Origin: an uncultured Bacteroidaceae bacterium
Lineage (GTDB): Bacteria; Bacteroidota; Bacteroidia; Bacteroidales; Bacteroidaceae
DNA: 64,000 bases
Reading direction: 5' to 3'
Assembly: GCA_934293005.1 (NCBI GenBank)
Contig: CAKQYA010000005.1
Span: 37,275 to 101,274, forward strand
Shown here: positions 2,571 to 60,737 of the stretch, in pieces
Numbering within the stretch: the stretch's first letter is position 1
Layout of the letters: each line of letters begins with the position of its first letter
Position numbers and translations under genes: made by a program
The notes under the pieces: generated by a model
Databases searched by the model: none
What the model saw: the letters and a program-made list of their open reading frames with translations, nothing else
Told to the model about the DNA's origin: nothing

Positions 2571-3644
2571 ATGAGAAAAGCAACATTGATTCTTGATGAC
2601 GGCACCCGCTTTGAGGGCTTGTCTTTCGGCTATGAGAAACCTGTGGCAGGAGAGGTTGTGTTCAACACTGCCATGACAGGTTATCCCGAGAGCCTCACAG
2701 ACCCGTCTTACGCCGGTCAGCTCATGACGCTGACTTACCCGCTTATAGGCAATTATGGTGTACCTCCTTTTACATTCGGTTCCAACGGATTGCCTGATTT
2801 TATGGAGAGCGAACGGATCCATGCAGAAGCTCTCATCGTGAGCGATTACAGCGAGGAGTGCAGTCATTGGAACGCTAACGAGACTCTTGCCGAATGGCTC
2901 AAGCGTGAGCATGTGCCAGGCATCACTGGCATAGACACGCGCGAGTTGACAAAGGTGCTGCGTGAGCATGGCGTGATGATGGGACGTATTGTCATGGAGG
3001 GCATGGGTGATAATGTTGAATCATTGCCATATTCTTCTGTCAATTATGTTGACAAGGTCTCTTGTTCCGAAGTGATACGCTACAATGAAGGAGCTGATAA
3101 GACTATAGTGCTTGTCGATTGTGGCGTTAAGAGCAACATCCTCCGTTGCCTCATCAAGCGCGGCGTGGAGATAATACGCGTGCCATGGAACTACGATTAC
3201 ACTTCCATGCCATACGATGGCATATTCATCAGCAATGGACCTGGCGACCCTGACATGTGCGGAGAGGCTGTTGACAACCTGCGCCGCGCCATGACTCTAA
3301 GCGATAAACCCATCTTTGGCATCTGCATGGGAAACCAGCTTCTTGCCAAAGCAGGTGGCGCCAAGACATACAAACTGAAGTATGGACATCGCAGTCATAA
3401 CCAGCCTGTGCGCATGGCTGGCTCTAACAAATGCTTCATCACAAGCCAGAATCACGGCTTTGCTGTGGATGACGCCACTCTCGGCTCCGATTGGGAACCA
3501 CTCTTCTATAACATGAACGACGGTTCTAACGAAGGCATTCGCCATAAGAGCAAGCCTTGGTTCTCTGTGCAGTTCCATCCTGAAGCTGCCAGTGGACCGA
3601 CCGACACAGAGTTTCTTTTCGATGAATTTGTTAAAATGTTGTAA
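2571..3644 (+). CDS. carA: carbamoyl-phosphate synthase small (glutaminase) subunit
   Basis: ORF 2511-3644; conserved CarA N-term starts at internal Met (MRKATLILDDGTRFEG); class-I GATase motifs GICMGNQLL, H..F.VQFHPEA. Confidence 0.85.
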   Translation: MRKATLILDDGTRFEGLSFGYEKPVAGEVVFNTAMTGYPESLTDPSYAGQLMTLTYPLIGNYGVPPFTFGSNGLPDFMESERIHAEALIVSDYSEECSHWNANETLAEWLKREHVPGITGIDTRELTKVLREHGVMMGRIVMEGMGDNVESLPYSSVNYVDKVSCSEVIRYNEGADKTIVLVDCGVKSNILRCLIKRGVEIIRVPWNYDYTSMPYDGIFISNGPGDPDMCGEAVDNLRRAMTLSDKPIFGICMGNQLLAKAGGAKTYKLKYGHRSHNQPVRMAGSNKCFITSQNHGFAVDDATLGSDWEPLFYNMNDGSNEGIRHKSKPWFSVQFHPEAASGPTDTEFLFDEFVKML

Positions 3645-8666: not shown

Positions 8667-8741
8667 AAGATATCAGCATTTTAATGCTTGTATCATCACT
8701 TCCTGCTTATAATGCAGCTCTATTATCATATTAGAGTTGAG

Positions 8742-8790
8742 CTTCCAATTGGCATTTCTTCATGAATGCCAGTTGGAGGCTTTTTTGTTT
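8742..8790 (+). terminator. rho-independent terminator after guaA
   Basis: imperfect hairpin cttccaattggcatt...aatgccagttggagg followed by cttttttgtttg. Confidence 0.55.
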
Positions 8791-8828: not shown

Positions 8829-8900
8829 AAAAAAGGGATAGTAAGGATACTTCGTAAAGTATCTTAGGATACTTGGCCAAGTATCCTAAGATACTTTTTT
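8829..8900. repeat. palindrome array, locus A: tandem iterations of GGATACTT-N4-AAGTATCC
   Basis: aaaaagggatagtaAGGATACTTcgtaAAGTATCTTAGGATACTTggccAAGTATCCTAAGATACTTtttt; same unit recurs at 30785-30873 and 60551-60638. Confidence 0.8.
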
Positions 8901-9002
8901 AATGGTGTTTCGGATTGACTTTAAAGGCATGCGCAACTAATAAAGATGTATGGTCTTATTGTATTGACGGCGATAAGTTATGTGGCGCATCTCTATCGCA
9001 AG

Positions 9003-9038
9003 GTTTAACCCAAATCTAATGACCGATTTGGGTTAAAC
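9003..9038. repeat. solo palindromic copy of MITE-like TIR motif (gtttaacccaaatc-taatgacc-gatttgggttaaac)
   Basis: perfect 14-bp inverted arms around an 8-bp loop; arms match the termini of the ~200-bp element at 10947-11149. Confidence 0.7.
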
Positions 9039-9285
9039 ATGCTTCATTAGCTGAAAGAGTGTCATATTGCTCTGTGATCATGAAAATACTCCCAAGGAAG
9101 AGTGCGTGTTTCATATTTTATTCGTACTTTTGTTATGTCATTCAGAGTATCGTCCCACTTTTATCTTGTGGCACAGAGGTAAGTGTTTTTTTCCTGATAT
9201 GATGCGATGCTGAGCATTTTTGTGTTACTTAGGCGTTGCGAATTATTTTAATTATTGTGCCGTGCTGAAAAATGATGAATTTAAC

Positions 9286-10371
9286 ATGAAGAGAAATGAG
9301 ATTTGCTACATTGTTGTTGTGGCTATTATTGGAGTGTCGTTGTTTTTAGGATTTGCAGAAGAAGTGTTTGCTGTTAGTCTTGGCAAATTTGCATGGACGG
9401 CACACTGGGTGTCATCGCCTGTGGCGCTGGCTTTGGGTTTAGCTTTTGCTCTGCTTTTAGGCAAGGCATTTCCTGTGTTTAATAAGACCATGTCTAAAAA
9501 ACTGCTGCAATATTCCGTTATAGGATTAGGTTTCGGAATGAACGTGGACAAAGCGCTGGCATCGGGAAGTGAAGGTATGCTGTTCACTGTGGTCAGCGTG
9601 TTTGGGACACTTGCCCTGGGCTGGCTCTTTGGACGAAAGATTCTGAATGTAGATTCACAGACGAGCTACTTGCTTAGTTCAGGAACAGCCATATGCGGCG
9701 GTTCGGCAATAGCAGCTGTTGGGCCAGTAATCAAAGCTAAGGCAGAGAGCATGTCGGTGGCATTAGGCGTGGTTTTTGTTCTAAATGGCATCGCTCTGTT
9801 CTTGTTTCCATCTATTGGCAATGCCTTAGGCATGACGATGAAGCAGTTTGGCATGTGGGCAGCCATTGCTATCCACGATACATCTTCTGTGGTAGGTGCA
9901 GGTGCGGCATACGACCAGATGCATCCCGAACTTGTTGCCAGTCAAGGAGTGAGTGCGCTTGAGGTTGCCACAACCATCAAGCTTACGCGAGCTTTGTGGA
10001 TAGTGGTGTTGGCGTTGGTCACACCATTCTTCTTCCGCAGATCGCTTGCAGAGTCGGGCGGAATGTCGAAGCCTTGGTATAGCTGTGTGCCACGTTTCAT
10101 CATTTGGTTTATTGTGGCCATAATCTTCAATACATATATATTAAGCAACGCTTCGCTTATAGGCTATGGTGCCGCAGCAATAGGAGGCGAGTTGAGTGGT
10201 GCTGTCAGCAAGCTTGCCAAGCATCTCATCACGCTTTCGCTTTTCTTTATCGGTGCGTCGCTAACCAGAGAAACGTTGCGTAGCGTTGGTCTCCGCCCTC
10301 TTATCCAAGGTGTGCTGCTATGGATAAGCATCAGCTGCATCAGCCTTGTATATATCTTTGGGGTGGGATAA
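9286..10371 (+). CDS. YeiH/UPF0324 family putative sulfate-exporter membrane protein
   Basis: ORF 9220-10371, likely start MKRNEICYIVV; polytopic membrane protein with YeiH-like glycine-rich segments; TAcTTTTG box near 9122. Confidence 0.6.
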   Translation: MKRNEICYIVVVAIIGVSLFLGFAEEVFAVSLGKFAWTAHWVSSPVALALGLAFALLLGKAFPVFNKTMSKKLLQYSVIGLGFGMNVDKALASGSEGMLFTVVSVFGTLALGWLFGRKILNVDSQTSYLLSSGTAICGGSAIAAVGPVIKAKAESMSVALGVVFVLNGIALFLFPSIGNALGMTMKQFGMWAAIAIHDTSSVVGAGAAYDQMHPELVASQGVSALEVATTIKLTRALWIVVLALVTPFFFRRSLAESGGMSKPWYSCVPRFIIWFIVAIIFNTYILSNASLIGYGAAAIGGELSGAVSKLAKHLITLSLFFIGASLTRETLRSVGLRPLIQGVLLWISISCISLVYIFGVG

Positions 10372-10431
10372 TCATCGTGATGAATTGCCACAACGGATTG
10401 TGAAATATCATTCCAAACAGTTTGTTCCTTT

Positions 10432-10459
10432 CTTAAACCCAAATAGGTCATCAGATTGG
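10432..10459. repeat. partial copy of MITE-like TIR motif (ttaaacccaaataggtcatcagattgg)
   Basis: similar to ttaacccaaatcggtcatta motif found at 10947, 11127, 16251, 53496. Confidence 0.5.
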
Positions 10460-27609: not shown

Positions 27610-30606
27610 ATGAGAAGATTTTTACTACTTCCATTATGCGCACTCTCTATGTCGAGCAATGCGCAGGTGACACCAAAGGTGTTGCCAGAAATTCCTGTCG
27701 CAGGACAGAAGTACATTCTTGTCAACAAAGCTCAGACTGCCACACAGTACATGTCACGCACATCTTGGGACGGCTCTCTCTATTTCCTTGGAGAGAAAGA
27801 TTCCAATTATGCTGACAATGCGCTCACCGCTGTAGACAACAATGATGGCACATGGTCGTTTGTCAGAGTGGTGAAAGAGGAACGTGAAACAGGCGAAGTG
27901 GACGGCGAGGGAAATGCTGTCAAGGAACTTGTCGACGTGACTTATTATATGGGCATTCCTGATGGCACAGCTAATGTGAAGAGCAACCTCACCACACCTG
28001 CCTATTGGAAACTGTGGGACATGAAGAATGGTTTCTATAACCTTATCATGGGTGAGGGCAACAATGCCACAGCATTGGAGATGGCAACGTACACTCCGAC
28101 AAAAGACTTGCGTCTGCATCTCAATAATGGTGGCCAGTATTTTGTGGCAACATACTATACAGGTCCTTGGTATCCAGACTGTCAGGGCGGCATAAAAGAA
28201 ACAGAGAACGAGAGTGATGGAACAGTGCAGTTTGAGGCAAATGATTCCACATCATTCAACTGGGGCTTCGTGTCTGTCGAAAAGGTGCCAGACTACTATA
28301 AGGATATGCAGTATTCAGGCACCATCAACAAATTCTATGAGAATTACTGCAACATGGATGAATATGGAGCAGGCTTCCTCGCTACATACAACGTTGTGGC
28401 AGAGGCATACAAGAACGCCACTAACTATGATGAACTGGCTGAATTGGATATAGAAGGCACGATAAATGCAAAGATTGCCCTGCAGAAGGAAATCGATGCA
28501 GCAATTGCTCTTAATGAGAAAGAAGACGCAGTGCTGTCTGCTGCTATTGCTGCTGCTATGAATGCTTTCAACACTATCACAGCAAAGGCTGACGTGGAGA
28601 ATGCCGCAACCACTCTTAAGAAGGCTGAGAATAACTATTCTCTTGGCACAGGTGATGTGTCTTCTCTTGGCACAAACATGTCGTTTGAAGATCTCGCTTC
28701 TCAGAATGGAAACATGACGACAGGTGTAGGGCCTGCTCCTTATGGATGGAATGTGTATATAAACGGCAAACTTGCCAACTCTGTTGAGGAAATCAAGGCT
28801 GCTGGAGTAAATGCATGGCATGGTGTGAATGATGACAGTGAGGGCGATGTGAAGGATGGACAGATGTCATTCGGAATATGGAATTCAAACATTCCAAATT
28901 ATGAAATATCACAAACTATCAAAGGCCTGGCAAATGGCACTTATGAGATCACTGCAGGCTTGATGGCAGGAAACAACAATGGTCCTCGCCTCACCACACA
29001 ACGCATCTTTGGCAATCTCAACTCAACTTACTACGCAAGCGATGCTGATTACGACCTTTCTGTTCTTGATAAATCAGAAGTGAGCGAATTTGCAGGCAAT
29101 GAGATTCTTGTCACAGACCGTGAGATGCGTCCTGTGACAGTGAAGGCTTTCGTGTATGACGGAACTCTCACATTTGGAGTGCGCACTGATAACAACCTTG
29201 CTGCTACATTCAATGGCGGCGCATCTAATGCCGGTGCAGGATGGTTTAAGGTGGACAACTTCACTATCAAGTCTTTAGGATATGATGCTGCTGATGCTAT
29301 TGCGATATATAATCACTACACAAAGGCTCTCGATTCTTGGGAAGACCAGCCTATGAGCAAAGCTGCAGCCGAAAAACTTGCTGATTTCATAAAGACAATG
29401 GACAACATCACAGAAGCGAGCTCACAAGAAGACATCATAGCAGGCATCATCGCTGCAAAGGGACTTATGGATGAAGTGAATGCATCTGTGAAGACTTACG
29501 AGAAACTTGCCGCGCTTATCGAAAAGCATTTCACAAGTCTCGAACAGTATGAAAACAAGACTGGCGCAGGCGATTATTCCGACGTGATTTATTCAGTCCA
29601 GGAACGTTATGACGAACGTACAGTTGTGGATGATGCAGAGGTGGATGAAATCTCTAAAGAACTTGACGCAGCTCTTGAGGCTTGCATCCAGTCGGATGAC
29701 ATCGAACCAGGTTCTGTGCTGACAGAGTATATCAAGAATGCTTCTTTTGAAGACCTCTCTAATCAGAACAATAACAATAGTGGCGGTGTCGAAAACGCTC
29801 CTAAGGGATGGAATCTCTACATCAACGGCACACAGGTTAATACAGCTGCTGAGATATCAGCCGCAGGAGTGAAGGCTTGGTGCGCTATCAATGGCGGCGA
29901 TGCGATAAATGTGGAACTTGAAAATGGCGATATCGTCAACAATCAATATACTGATGGTGACCATCTATGGGGTATCTGGACAGAAGAAATTCCAGAGATT
30001 GAACTCTCGCAGACCATTAAGGGTCTGCCTGAAGGAACATATACTGCTACTTGCGATGTGCTCGTGCAGTATAACTGGGCTGGTTACTGCATCACTACTC
30101 AGCGAATCTTCGCCAACGACTACGTGGCAATGTACTCTTATGAAGGCAACTATGAGAACAACCTTCCAGAGGATGCTCGCATCGCACAGGAAATAGACGC
30201 TCTCAACCCTGATGCCGAACTGAAACACCTTACATACGCAGGCCATGAGTGTGAGGCTCCACGCTCTGACTACTCTAACAAGGTTTCTCTCACTTTCGGT
30301 CTTGCAAAGAAAGGCGACATCAAACTTGGCTTCCGCACAAACAACATTGACCGCGACGGTGTGGCTCAGGGCAGCGGTAAGGGATGGTTCAAACTTGACA
30401 ACTGGACTCTGACTTACGATTCAACAGAAGTTCCTGCAGGAGCAGGTACAGGTGCTGATGCCACAGGTGTGGACTCTATCACAGAGAATGCAGGTGGAGA
30501 GCCTGTGGAGTTCTACTCTGTAGATGGAGCTCGCCGCTCATCTCTCCAGACTGGCATTAACATTGTCAAGATTGGTGACAAGGTTTCAAAAGTCATCGTG
30601 AAATGA
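27610..30606 (+). CDS. T9SS C-terminal-sorting-domain secreted protein with two tandem homologous beta-rich modules separated by helical linkers
   Basis: 998 aa; signal peptide MRRFLLLPLCALSMSSNAQ; module A (~aa 355-545) and module B (~aa 700-935) share SFEDL..QN...GV..AP.GWN.YING...EI.AAGV.AW...GIW...IP..E.SQTIKGL..GTY...TTQRIF.N and end G(A/K)GWFK(V/L)DN(F/W)T; C-term EFYSVDGARRSSLQTGINIVKIGDKVSKVIVK = Por/T9SS CTD. Confidence 0.8.
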   Translation: MRRFLLLPLCALSMSSNAQVTPKVLPEIPVAGQKYILVNKAQTATQYMSRTSWDGSLYFLGEKDSNYADNALTAVDNNDGTWSFVRVVKEERETGEVDGEGNAVKELVDVTYYMGIPDGTANVKSNLTTPAYWKLWDMKNGFYNLIMGEGNNATALEMATYTPTKDLRLHLNNGGQYFVATYYTGPWYPDCQGGIKETENESDGTVQFEANDSTSFNWGFVSVEKVPDYYKDMQYSGTINKFYENYCNMDEYGAGFLATYNVVAEAYKNATNYDELAELDIEGTINAKIALQKEIDAAIALNEKEDAVLSAAIAAAMNAFNTITAKADVENAATTLKKAENNYSLGTGDVSSLGTNMSFEDLASQNGNMTTGVGPAPYGWNVYINGKLANSVEEIKAAGVNAWHGVNDDSEGDVKDGQMSFGIWNSNIPNYEISQTIKGLANGTYEITAGLMAGNNNGPRLTTQRIFGNLNSTYYASDADYDLSVLDKSEVSEFAGNEILVTDREMRPVTVKAFVYDGTLTFGVRTDNNLAATFNGGASNAGAGWFKVDNFTIKSLGYDAADAIAIYNHYTKALDSWEDQPMSKAAAEKLADFIKTMDNITEASSQEDIIAGIIAAKGLMDEVNASVKTYEKLAALIEKHFTSLEQYENKTGAGDYSDVIYSVQERYDERTVVDDAEVDEISKELDAALEACIQSDDIEPGSVLTEYIKNASFEDLSNQNNNNSGGVENAPKGWNLYINGTQVNTAAEISAAGVKAWCAINGGDAINVELENGDIVNNQYTDGDHLWGIWTEEIPEIELSQTIKGLPEGTYTATCDVLVQYNWAGYCITTQRIFANDYVAMYSYEGNYENNLPEDARIAQEIDALNPDAELKHLTYAGHECEAPRSDYSNKVSLTFGLAKKGDIKLGFRTNNIDRDGVAQGSGKGWFKLDNWTLTYDSTEVPAGAGTGADATGVDSITENAGGEPVEFYSVDGARRSSLQTGINIVKIGDKVSKVIVK

Positions 30607-30685: not shown

Positions 30686-30735
30686 AGCCCCTCATGCAAT
30701 ACTTATCATTGCAAGAGGGGCGCTTTTTGTTTTCT
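30686..30735 (+). terminator. rho-independent terminator after T9SS cargo gene
   Basis: gcccctcatgcaat-acttatc-attgcaagaggggc gctttttgtttt. Confidence 0.7.
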
Positions 30736-30784
30736 TATTGATGAAAGCTGCGCTGGTGTGTGCCTCATGCAGTTTTTATGTCGA

Positions 30785-30873
30785 AAAAAGATAGTAAGGA
30801 TACTTGGCAAAGTATTACGTGATACTTTGCAAAGTATTATATGATACTTGGCCAAGTATCACGTGATACTTTT
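30785..30873. repeat. palindrome array, locus B (GATACTT-N4-AAGTATC units x4)
   Basis: aaaaagatagtaaGGATACTTggcaAAGTATtacgtGATACTTtgcaAAGTATtatatGATACTTggccAAGTATCacgtGATACTTttta. Confidence 0.8.
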
Positions 30874-30985
30874 TAGGGGTGCTTCTTGGCATATTTTGCT
30901 GAAACGTGAGCATTTGCCAAGCCATGCCAAATGCAACATATTCGTTGACTTCACCCCCGTCTTGTGTCTGATGGTTGAATGGAGC

Positions 30986-49945: not shown

Positions 49946-50704
49946 ATGAGACAAATAATCATTGGCATATTGATGTTTTTCGTTCTTGTGCCAGCATCAG
50001 CACAGAATGCGCGCGACTATATACGCATGGGCAACAAGGCATACCGCCAAAGCCAGTATGACAAGGCTGAGACGATGTATTTAAAGTCCGTGTCTAAGGT
50101 GCCCTCATTCGAGGGATATTACAATCTTGGCAACGTTTACGTCATGCAGAGGAAAGACTCTACAGCCTTTGAAAATTATAAAAAAGCTGATTCAATAGGC
50201 ATTAACGATGCAGTGCGCAAATCGCTTAACTATCATAATATGGGCAATATCTGGTATGCTCAAGGCATTGCGGCGACTCGCTCGCATGAGGGCAATGCTG
50301 CAGATGCATTCCAGAATGCTGTCAATTTCTATAAGAGCGCACTTCGTTGCAATCCTTCCGATAATGAAACTCGATACAACCTTGCAATGGCGCAGTATCA
50401 GCTGAAGAAGAGCCAAAACAACAAAGGCGGCGGTCAGAATGATAATGGCAAGGATGATAAAGACCAACAGAAACAAAAGCAGCAGAATAAAGACCAACAG
50501 AAAAAGGACCAACAGAAAAAGGACCAACAGAAAGATAATAAGGATCAGCAGCAAAATAAATCCAACAGTGAGAAAAAGGATGAAATGAGCAAACAAGCTG
50601 CCGAACAACTGCTTAATTCTGCTCAACAAGATGAGAAGAGCGTTCAACGAAAATTGAACGAGAATAAGGACAACCGTCGCAAAACACTCGAAAAAGACTG
50701 GTGA
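49946..50704 (+). CDS. batC: aerotolerance protein BatC (TPR repeats with K/D/Q-rich low-complexity tail)
   Basis: 252 aa; TPR-like YYNLGNVY / HNMGNIWY; tail KDQQKKDQQKKDQQK. Confidence 0.7.
   Translation: MRQIIIGILMFFVLVPASAQNARDYIRMGNKAYRQSQYDKAETMYLKSVSKVPSFEGYYNLGNVYVMQRKDSTAFENYKKADSIGINDAVRKSLNYHNMGNIWYAQGIAATRSHEGNAADAFQNAVNFYKSALRCNPSDNETRYNLAMAQYQLKKSQNNKGGGQNDNGKDDKDQQKQKQQNKDQQKKDQQKKDQQKDNKDQQQNKSNSEKKDEMSKQAAEQLLNSAQQDEKSVQRKLNENKDNRRKTLEKDW
50488..50532 (+). repeat. 15-bp tandem repeat (aa[ag]gaccaacagaaa x3, plus a diverged copy upstream) inside batC
   Basis: encodes KDQQK iterations; potential length-variable low-complexity tail. Confidence 0.7.
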
Positions 50705-55836: not shown

Positions 55837-55908
55837 GGTGCGTTGGATGAGAGGCTTAGTCAACGGTCTGCAAAACCGTGTACACCCGTTCGAATCGGGT
55901 ACGCACCT
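55837..55908 (+). tRNA. probable tRNA-Cys (anticodon GCA) with atypical D-arm
   Basis: perfect 7-bp acceptor ggtgcgt/acgcacc, anticodon stem acggt/accgt with loop ctGCAaa, T-arm acccg-ttcgaat-cgggt; D-arm pairs poorly in my hand fold. Confidence 0.6.
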
Positions 55909-55918
55909 CTTTAAAAAA

Positions 55919-55958: not shown

Positions 55959-56213
55959 GATGCCTTCTGTTGTATTGATAAATGCTGGGTCAGCGGATTT
56001 TCCCGGTTAGTGGCAATGGATAATGCTGCATTGCTCTGTCTGACCCTATAACTCTGCTGCTCCGACTTTCATCAACTTACAGGAACGCATCCCTCAGACT
56101 ATTGGGCATTATAAAGAGAAGGACGCTGTACTTGCCAACGACATTCTGCTCTTGAAGGAGATAATTAAGTTGGCTTGGAATTGACGATGCTGCTGGTGTG
56201 GACATGTTGTTAG

Positions 56214-56259
56214 CTATAATATAAAAAGGTGGCGTATCCTGTGATAGATACGTCACCTT
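56214..56259 (-). terminator. rho-independent terminator (minus strand) after bamD-rpoZ-DUF4293 genes
   Basis: 13-bp stem aaggtggcgtatc/gatacgtcacctt (one G-U), loop ctgtgata; forward A-run ataatataaaaa upstream gives a U-run on minus. Confidence 0.6.
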
Positions 56260-56305
56260 ATTATATATTGTCAGTTGAGGAAATATTCATTTGTTTCACT
56301 CCTTG

Positions 56306-60419: not shown

Positions 60420-60550
60420 TCTTAAATCTGATTCGGCATCAGGCTGATGCCTATTGTGGGGTTGTGCATTAGTCGTTCTGTCCAACTCTTGCCAAAGTCG
60501 TTCTTCGGCATGTTGTTTTGCGCGTGCTATGCATGCGCATGAAACACCCG

Positions 60551-60638
60551 TAAAAAGTATCTTAGGATACTTGGTCAAGTATATTAGGATACTTTGCAAA
60601 GTATCTTAGGATACTTCGCCAAGTATCCTTACCCTCTT
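60551..60638. repeat. palindrome array, locus C (GATACTT-N4-AAGTATC units x4)
   Basis: taaaaAGTATCTTAGGATACTTggtcAAGTATattAGGATACTTtgcaAAGTATCTTAGGATACTTcgccAAGTATCCTtaccctctttttt. Confidence 0.8.
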
Positions 60639-60737
60639 TTTTGACGGATAATTTTGTTTCCATGCCCTTTGTTGTTATACGCACATGGGATGGAAAAGAC
60701 TTTGGCCCAAACGGTGACAAGAATTGAAAAGAATCCC

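Follow-up and report, generated by a model that had tools for sequence, protein, structure and literature searches.

Each of the three loci carries a copy of a dispersed, non-coding repeat family found on Prevotellaceae chromosomes. They lie in the window, i.e. the whole 64-kb stretch of DNA that was analysed. Each copy consists of a leader, an array of 22-bp units and a tail that begins with a T-run. The array unit is ATACTT-NGCN-AAGTAT plus a 6-nt linker, repeated head-to-tail. The family, found in gut Prevotella/Segatella genomes, is apparently undescribed. The explanation considered best, and held to be moderately probable, is a dispersed repeat of the REP/BIME-like or MITE-with-minisatellite kind: its length would be changed by slippage, its copies would be made as whole units and its hairpins would act incidentally as a barrier.

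Layout of the arrays in the window

The arrays are A1 (8846-8896), A2 (30799-30871) and A3 (60555-60627); none has any coding capacity. Eight matches to GATACTT-N4-AAGTATC (up to two mismatches) are found in the window, all within the three arrays, for 0.16 expected; none of 100 shuffled windows reached eight. A period of 22 is given by Tandem Repeats Finder at A1, A2 and A3. The three-locus repeat reported in the preliminary description from the letters of the sequence is thus real. Its count of three to four units per array is replaced by five half-sites in A1 (two full hairpin units and a terminal half-site) and seven in A2 and in A3 (three units and a half). ATACTT and AAGTAT half-sites alternate, their starts being 10 and 12 nt apart, which amounts to one dyad axis per 11 bp and a 22-bp period. 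Because of this spacing of axes, single-stranded DNA or RNA could fold either into a row of 7-bp hairpins or into one 19-29-bp hairpin.

A1 (forward strand) reads GATACTT cgta AAGTATC ttag GATACTT ggcc AAGTATC ctaa GATACTT. Its leader, AAAAAAGGGATAGTAAG (8829-8845), aligns with those of A2 and A3 and is kept in all same-species contigs; its tail is TTTTAATGGTGTTTC (8897-8911). A2 (forward strand) has the linkers TACGTG, TATATG and CACGTG and the loops ggca, tgca and ggcc. It is preceded by the leader AAAAAAGATAGTAAG (30784-30798), which is AAAAAGAGAGTAAG in the allele of strain L194, and followed by the tail TTTAGGGGTGCTTC (30872-30885). A3 is in the opposite orientation to A1 and A2. Read on the reverse strand, its leader is AAAAAAGAGGGTAAG (60628-60642), retained in the one-half-site allele of contig L089, and its tail is TTTACGGGTGTTTC (60541-60554). 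The A2 leader and the three tails were read in the sequence and aligned with the other copies.

The leader common to the three copies comprises A5-6, G, one of GGATAG, ATAG or AGGG, then TAAG (an A-run followed by a GAGGGTAAG-like stretch); the common tail comprises T3-6, A, NGGGTG and YTTC. A shared start and a T-run end had been noticed from the sequence and are present in all three arrays; A3, however, is a reverse complement, and its leader and tail line up with the others only once it is inverted. On both sides, the copies resemble each other for only about 15 nt beyond the array. The tail is not an inverted repeat of the leader, and an IS-like terminal repeat is absent. No solo leader-half-site-tail copy was found by the search of the window.

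Length variation between strains

The most informative property was missed by the preliminary description: the arrays are variable in number, and differ between strains by steps of 22 bp. Contigs that encode proteins identical to those of the window were compared. All three arrays vary by whole 22-bp units within the species of the window, from 1 to 9 half-sites. A1 has alleles of 3, 5 or 7 half-sites in same-species contigs. A2 is the same in three close contigs and has 3 half-sites, versus 7, in the more divergent L194. A3 has 7 half-sites in the window and in eight contigs; 9 in L090 (+22 bp, one unit duplicated); a single one in L089 (-66 bp, exactly three units lost), where leader and tail are intact. 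The flanks of these length variants are otherwise nearly identical. Folding of the array is proposed to promote replication slippage or misaligned repair, which would generate the 22-bp length variants.

The presence of arrays also differs between lineages. None is found next to panD in 80 related metagenome loci (77-88% identity), nor after guaA in three sister species (about 92% GuaA identity); the insertions are therefore lineage-specific. These array-less panD and guaA loci have neither synteny nor alignable spacers, so that insertion boundaries cannot be defined there. Other strains of the species, covered over about 150 kb, have no array at positions where the window lacks one.

Distribution across genomes

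Recurrence across the genome and in related genomes, proposed as a check at the outset, was found: a scan for GATACTT-N4-AAGTAT-N5-GATACTT in one genome per species gave at least 80 loci. Nearly all of the matches listed are from the Segatella copri complex, other Prevotella and Bacteroidales MAGs. Also among the matches listed are Prevotella CAG:1092, rumen and pig MAGs, MAGs labelled Bacteroidaceae, Bacteroidales or 'Bacteroides', and one match in a Parabacteroides distasonis isolate assembly. At least 17 of the loci listed belong to one MAG and at least 10 to another. The Acutalibacteraceae label of contig L031 was rejected: it is mis-binned S. copri/Segatella DNA, with proteins 89-100% identical to the array neighbours in L010 and their orthologues. 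The window comes from a Prevotella species that is uncultured; between its GuaA and the closest other clusters, one of them named Prevotella sp., identity does not exceed 92-93%. Gut metagenomes, Hadza ones among them, contain same-species contigs.

A pattern scan of viral contigs and blastn of the element against phage and plasmid collections both gave no match. The gathering scan of Rfam gave nothing at threshold except one tRNA elsewhere. Full-text searches, with 18-mers of the element and on Prevotella repeats, found no description in the literature. The opinion that this is not a described element is upheld by these Rfam and literature searches.

Positions relative to genes were derived from heuristic ORF calls around the arrays. 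Outside long ORFs are 82 of 83 places, or 52 of 53 non-redundant places after removal of orthologous duplicates. Among the 42 places with both neighbours known, 21 are tandem, 15 convergent and 6 divergent. Of the intergenic and 3'-end bias suspected earlier, the former part is clear (52/53); the bias to gene 3' ends is a trend, below significance (15 convergent versus 6 divergent). The T-run tail is randomly oriented with respect to incoming genes: 8 arrive from the leader side and 9 from the tail side.

Hairpin anatomy and core conservation

Anatomy was studied on 190 hairpins, taken from related loci as well as the window. Six base pairs (ATACTT/AAGTAT) form the conserved core, which is shorter than the 9-bp half-site first described. 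The 4-nt loop is variable, with a bias to NGCN; GGCA, TGCC, TGCA, GGCC, GGCG and CGCC make up about half of the 190. The 6-nt linker between hairpins is lineage-typical: CTTAGG/CCTAAG, CACGTG/TACGTG, GTGGAG/CTCCAC, GTTTAG. Of 103 pairs of adjacent hairpins, 98 have a spacing of 22 bp. The centres of loop and linker are both palindromic at consensus level; as a result, the whole array is self-complementary and the 22-mer dyad-symmetric. The bases at the hairpin foot are TAAG, TTAG, CTAA or ACGT. Conserved flanks differ in other genomes, each having its own, and cover only about 15 nt in the window's species. In the DYCT01 MAG (L013, L017, L022, L042, L053, L057, L069, L071) a repeated element of about 500 bp has the array at its centre; the arms of this element have about 230 conserved nt and carry inverted copies of TGTATATTTATGCA.

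One orthologous locus has the array in a spacer of about 115 nt between co-directional genes in 8 species representatives of the S. copri complex. The flanking genes read as gpmI and ung by sequence motifs. At this locus, compared in six species, variation is found in none of the 36 core columns and in 6 of the 26 columns of loops and linkers (p=0.004). Conserved half-sites with a free spacer had been described: the former hold, and the spacer is biased to NGCN rather than free. In all arrays, stem departures from the core consensus comprise 261 single breaks versus 11 compensated pairs. Stem changes being uncompensated, there is no positive evidence of selection on pairing. That the exact half-site is kept while linkers and flanks differ would fit protein recognition at least as well as passive selfish spread.

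The main rival to the repeat-family reading is considered rather unlikely. The arrays would be binding platforms for a dimeric sequence-specific protein (nucleoid-associated protein, regulator or domesticated nuclease) and would be selected for this predicted binding; inverted half-sites 11 bp apart would lie on one helix face and the number of units would set occupancy. The half-period of 11 bp is near one helical turn. ATACTT/AAGTAT cores are kept across lineages with differing loops, linkers and flanks, and are invariant at the orthologous S. copri-complex locus, where loops and linkers vary. Uncompensated stem deviations are expected where sequence, not pairing, is read, and the lack of orientation preference relative to transcription is that of a symmetric DNA site. 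However, concerted evolution within arrays could by itself keep the half-sites constant. The number of units is free among near-identical strains, down to one half-site, which is hard to reconcile with a dosage-critical site. Arrays mostly lie near 3' ends or between convergent genes, rather than in promoter regions, and no candidate protein was identified.

A promoter box was noted at the same orthologous locus. In L010, L014, L020, L026, L035, L048, L051 and L079, the last half-site and T-run, at the array end nearest the start codon, read TACTTTTG. This matches TAnnTTTG exactly, some 20 nt ahead of the downstream start codon. TAnnTTTG is the -7 promoter consensus of Bacteroides/Bacteroidetes. 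The box was rejected as a feature of the family: the match is exact only where a G follows the T-run of the tail, and the window copies read TACTTTTT.

Neighbouring genes, terminators and predicted folding

A1, A2 and A3 each lie 110-180 nt past a stop codon. A1 is 163 nt downstream of the guaA stop; a terminator-like hairpin with a T-run (8739-8782, forward strand; terminator scan, given as context only) is located 47 nt before the array. The next gene past A1 encodes a PF03601 membrane protein (9017-10445), about 120 to >300 nt away. This gene is absent from the same-species contigs L095, L096 and L099, which have about 50 nt in place of 1.43 kb, with pyrG adjoining.

A2 lies between convergent genes, 179 nt past a 998-aa ORF (27610-30606) and 113 nt past a HAD hydrolase gene. 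After the 998-aa ORF, a hairpin GCCCCTC..GAGGGGC followed by TTTTTGTTTT (30687-30733, forward strand; context only) is recognizable by eye about 50 nt before A2; the consensus terminator scan made no call at this position. Strain L194 has a 193-aa ORF (9407-9988 of L194) in place of the 998-aa ORF.

A3 lies between convergent uvrB and panD; no terminator of uvrB was called before it by the terminator scan. The placement of all arrays just after terminators, as first described, is found for A1 (scan) and A2 (by eye), not for A3. As to the neighbours then named, guaA and uvrB agree with domain content; the supposed T9SS cargo gene, i.e. the 998-aa ORF, matches nothing in Pfam or NCBIfam at E<=0.01, T9SS sorting domains included.

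For either strand, folding of the window arrays and their flanks as RNA predicts a hairpin of 19-29 bp, with energies of -31 to -47 kcal/mol and z scores of -5.9 to -8.3. Predictions are a 19-bp hairpin on either strand for A1 (z -6.1 and -7.8), -47.4 kcal/mol for A2 (z -7.5), and z -8.3 and -5.9 for A3. In the leader-to-tail direction, the T-run directly follows the last half-site; in the reverse direction, a T-run lies about 10 nt past the hairpin.

The arrays could primarily be terminators, insulators or mRNA 3'-end stabilisers, selected against read-through between neighbouring or convergent genes; this is judged unlikely. It would account for the very stable hairpins predicted on both strands, the A-run that opens the leader and the T-run directly after the last half-site in all three window copies, their distance to stop codons, the 15 convergent versus 6 divergent contexts, and the array that fills the S. 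copri-complex spacer. It leaves the conserved half-site sequence unexplained. Moreover, none of the three arrays was called by the consensus terminator scan, separate canonical-looking terminators stand upstream of A1 and A2, and the U-run on the leader side is about 10 nt from the hairpin foot. Tail orientation is random (8 versus 9), and L089 is devoid of all A3 repeat units, one half-site being left. The earlier view that the array is not an ordinary terminator agrees with the scan and with this random orientation. In the repeat-family reading, an array in place would form a hairpin barrier at transcript 3' ends, stopping read-through or protecting from 3' exonucleases in a REP/BIME-like way. 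Such a barrier would probably be a side effect, not the reason for the existence of the family.

That the arrays are genes for structured small RNAs is most improbable. The predicted folds are stable, and lenient Rfam matches consist only of miRNA-precursor-like hairpins; these matches are all far below gathering scores (at most 35 bits for thresholds of 57-245). There is no covariation, the two strands fold equally well, length changes in steps of whole units and can collapse to one half-site, and the promoter scan found no promoter-like site above chance near the arrays.

Comparison with known repeat families

The element is proposed to be outside REP/BIME, BrickBuilt and PINSR, as a new family that shares their general kind and would work like them. 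A CRISPR array was rejected: units abut, with only 4-nt loops and 6-nt linkers, and unique spacers are absent. An integron attC was rejected on architecture.

REP/BIME and REPINs (Proteobacteria, E. coli BIME-2). As in these families, the arrays are short extragenic palindromes, dispersed in many lineage-specific copies, variable in unit number, located mostly beyond 3' ends and hairpin-forming on both strands. The REP/BIME-like look reported at first, of multi-locus intergenic palindromes, is borne out. Arrays of both are regular, those of REP/BIME with REPs in alternating orientation; here, half-sites alternate every 11 bp. Since each 22-bp hairpin unit is symmetric, alternating orientation of whole REPs would be indistinguishable from simple tandem repetition. 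With its 6-7-bp stem and 22-bp period, the unit is much shorter than that of REP/BIME; it is also fully dyad-symmetric, neighbouring hairpins share arms, the host belongs to the Bacteroidota, leader and tail are conserved and no RAYT was found in the array-bearing loci. REP palindromes carry at one end a conserved tetranucleotide, GTAG or CGTC (PMC3733652); no GTAG, CTAC, CGTC or GACG is found at the foot of the array hairpins.

BrickBuilt (MITE of P. gingivalis). Its 23-nt unit, for which palindromy is not described, is present in 1 to >20 copies between leaders and tails of up to about 300 nt with IS5-like terminal inverted repeats, GAGACCTTTGCA and TGCAAAGGTCTC; BLAST matches were reported solely in P. 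gingivalis and P. gulae (PMC4596501). Both families have a Bacteroidota host, strictly intergenic dispersal, a spacer-less tandem unit of about 22-23 nt in variable number, and a leader and tail. The DYCT01 element of about 500 bp, with long leader and tail and inverted arm motifs, has the same MITE-with-minisatellite layout. The window arrays differ from BrickBuilt, as described, by their palindromic unit and by leaders and tails of about 15 nt. With at most two mismatches, its terminal repeat has matches in the window only at 3050 and 55779, fewer than by chance and far from the arrays.

PINSR. This 188-bp non-coding repeat, specific to P. intermedia/nigrescens, has about 180 intergenic copies (PMC4755523). 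Like PINSR, the arrays are an amplified intergenic repeat specific to a Prevotella lineage, without terminal inverted repeats or known mobilising enzyme (PMC4755523). Unlike them PINSR, by its description, is a single 188-bp unit of the oral P. intermedia clade for which no tandem palindrome is described.

Bidirectional intrinsic terminators. The A-run, stable hairpin (predicted for the arrays) and T-run between gene ends are common to both. The arrays differ by repeated units, family-wide conserved sequence, copy-number variation, random orientation and the fact that A1 and A2 already have separate terminators upstream.

Mobility and candidate enzymes

Mobility of the arrays is inferred from their common ends and patchy distribution; as no clean pair of filled and empty sites was obtained, the same holds for boundaries and target duplication. 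To make new copies, leader, array and tail would be copied and pasted as one unit by some enzyme, modelled on a REP/RAYT-type or MITE/IS-type mechanism. No transposase, RAYT, other mobilising gene or binding protein was identified in the array-bearing loci. Clustering of ORFs around arrays revealed no gene family recurring beside them except orthologous housekeeping genes.

That the family is a canonical REP/REPIN population, which a single-copy RAYT (Y1 transposase, IS200/IS605 superfamily) encoded elsewhere in the genome would mobilise, is regarded as quite improbable. TTAC/TTAN lies beside the terminal half-site on both outward-reading strands, presumably reminiscent of IS608-type target tetranucleotides. 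Many lineage-specific short extragenic palindromes in regular alternating arrays also correspond to the general description of REP/BIME (PMC2817692, PMC3733652). The GTAG/CGTC tag is nevertheless absent from the hairpin foot, stems are only 6-7 bp, and Bacteroidetes are unmentioned in the RAYT survey. In 727 kb of array-bearing DNA, tblastn gave no Y1 transposase match better than E=0.25, a weak test with two approximate queries.

A Bacteroidota-specific counterpart of the REPIN-RAYT system, with the arrays as its cis element, is unlikely. A vertically inherited putative nuclease or DNA-binding protein would read ATACTT (as hairpin or duplex), disseminate the arrays and use the phased 11-bp platforms to insulate transcription units, the number of units tuning the effect. 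If a dedicated protein reads the invariant half-site, REP/RAYT-like biology would be extended to Bacteroidota; we know of no described example in this phylum.

Implications and other observations

Few human gut bacteria have been studied as much as Segatella (Prevotella) copri and its relatives, and few are less tractable. Length steps of 22 bp between near-identical strains provide variable-number markers for strain tracking. The arrays are also candidate cis elements at transcript ends, with possible roles in termination, RNA stability or genome plasticity.

Arrays lie within about 100 nt of a contig end in L002, L011, L021, L042, L058, L062, L071 and L078. Scaffold L006 of Prevotella sp. 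CAG:1092 contains a perfect 216-bp palindrome centred on an array (1204-1419). Given how many arrays lie at MAG contig ends, they probably cause some of the breaks and fold-back artefacts in short-read assemblies.

In the S. copri complex, an array is found between tandem paralogous genes (L073, 2564-3982 and 4100-4531; also L004, L043, L066, L080). The products share the N-terminus MADxxFxIxxGxNQIxPNA and have no Pfam match. Beside the array in L043, the alignment inspected by eye suggests a group II intron reverse transcriptase.

Two other features of the window were noted. A 15-bp coding tandem repeat, AAAGACCAACAGAAA, is present in 5 copies (50459-50533) inside a 252-aa ORF (49946-50704), which has faint TPR matches and belongs to a BatA/BatD-type cluster. 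A tRNA-Cys(GCA) was detected by ARAGORN (55837-55909) and is not listed in the Rfam gathering scan. About 100 nt past it (about 56000-56300), L204-L206 have unrelated sequence in place of a segment of 150-290 bp that is present in the window and in L203; the region downstream of this tRNA gene may be a hotspot of integration or replacement.
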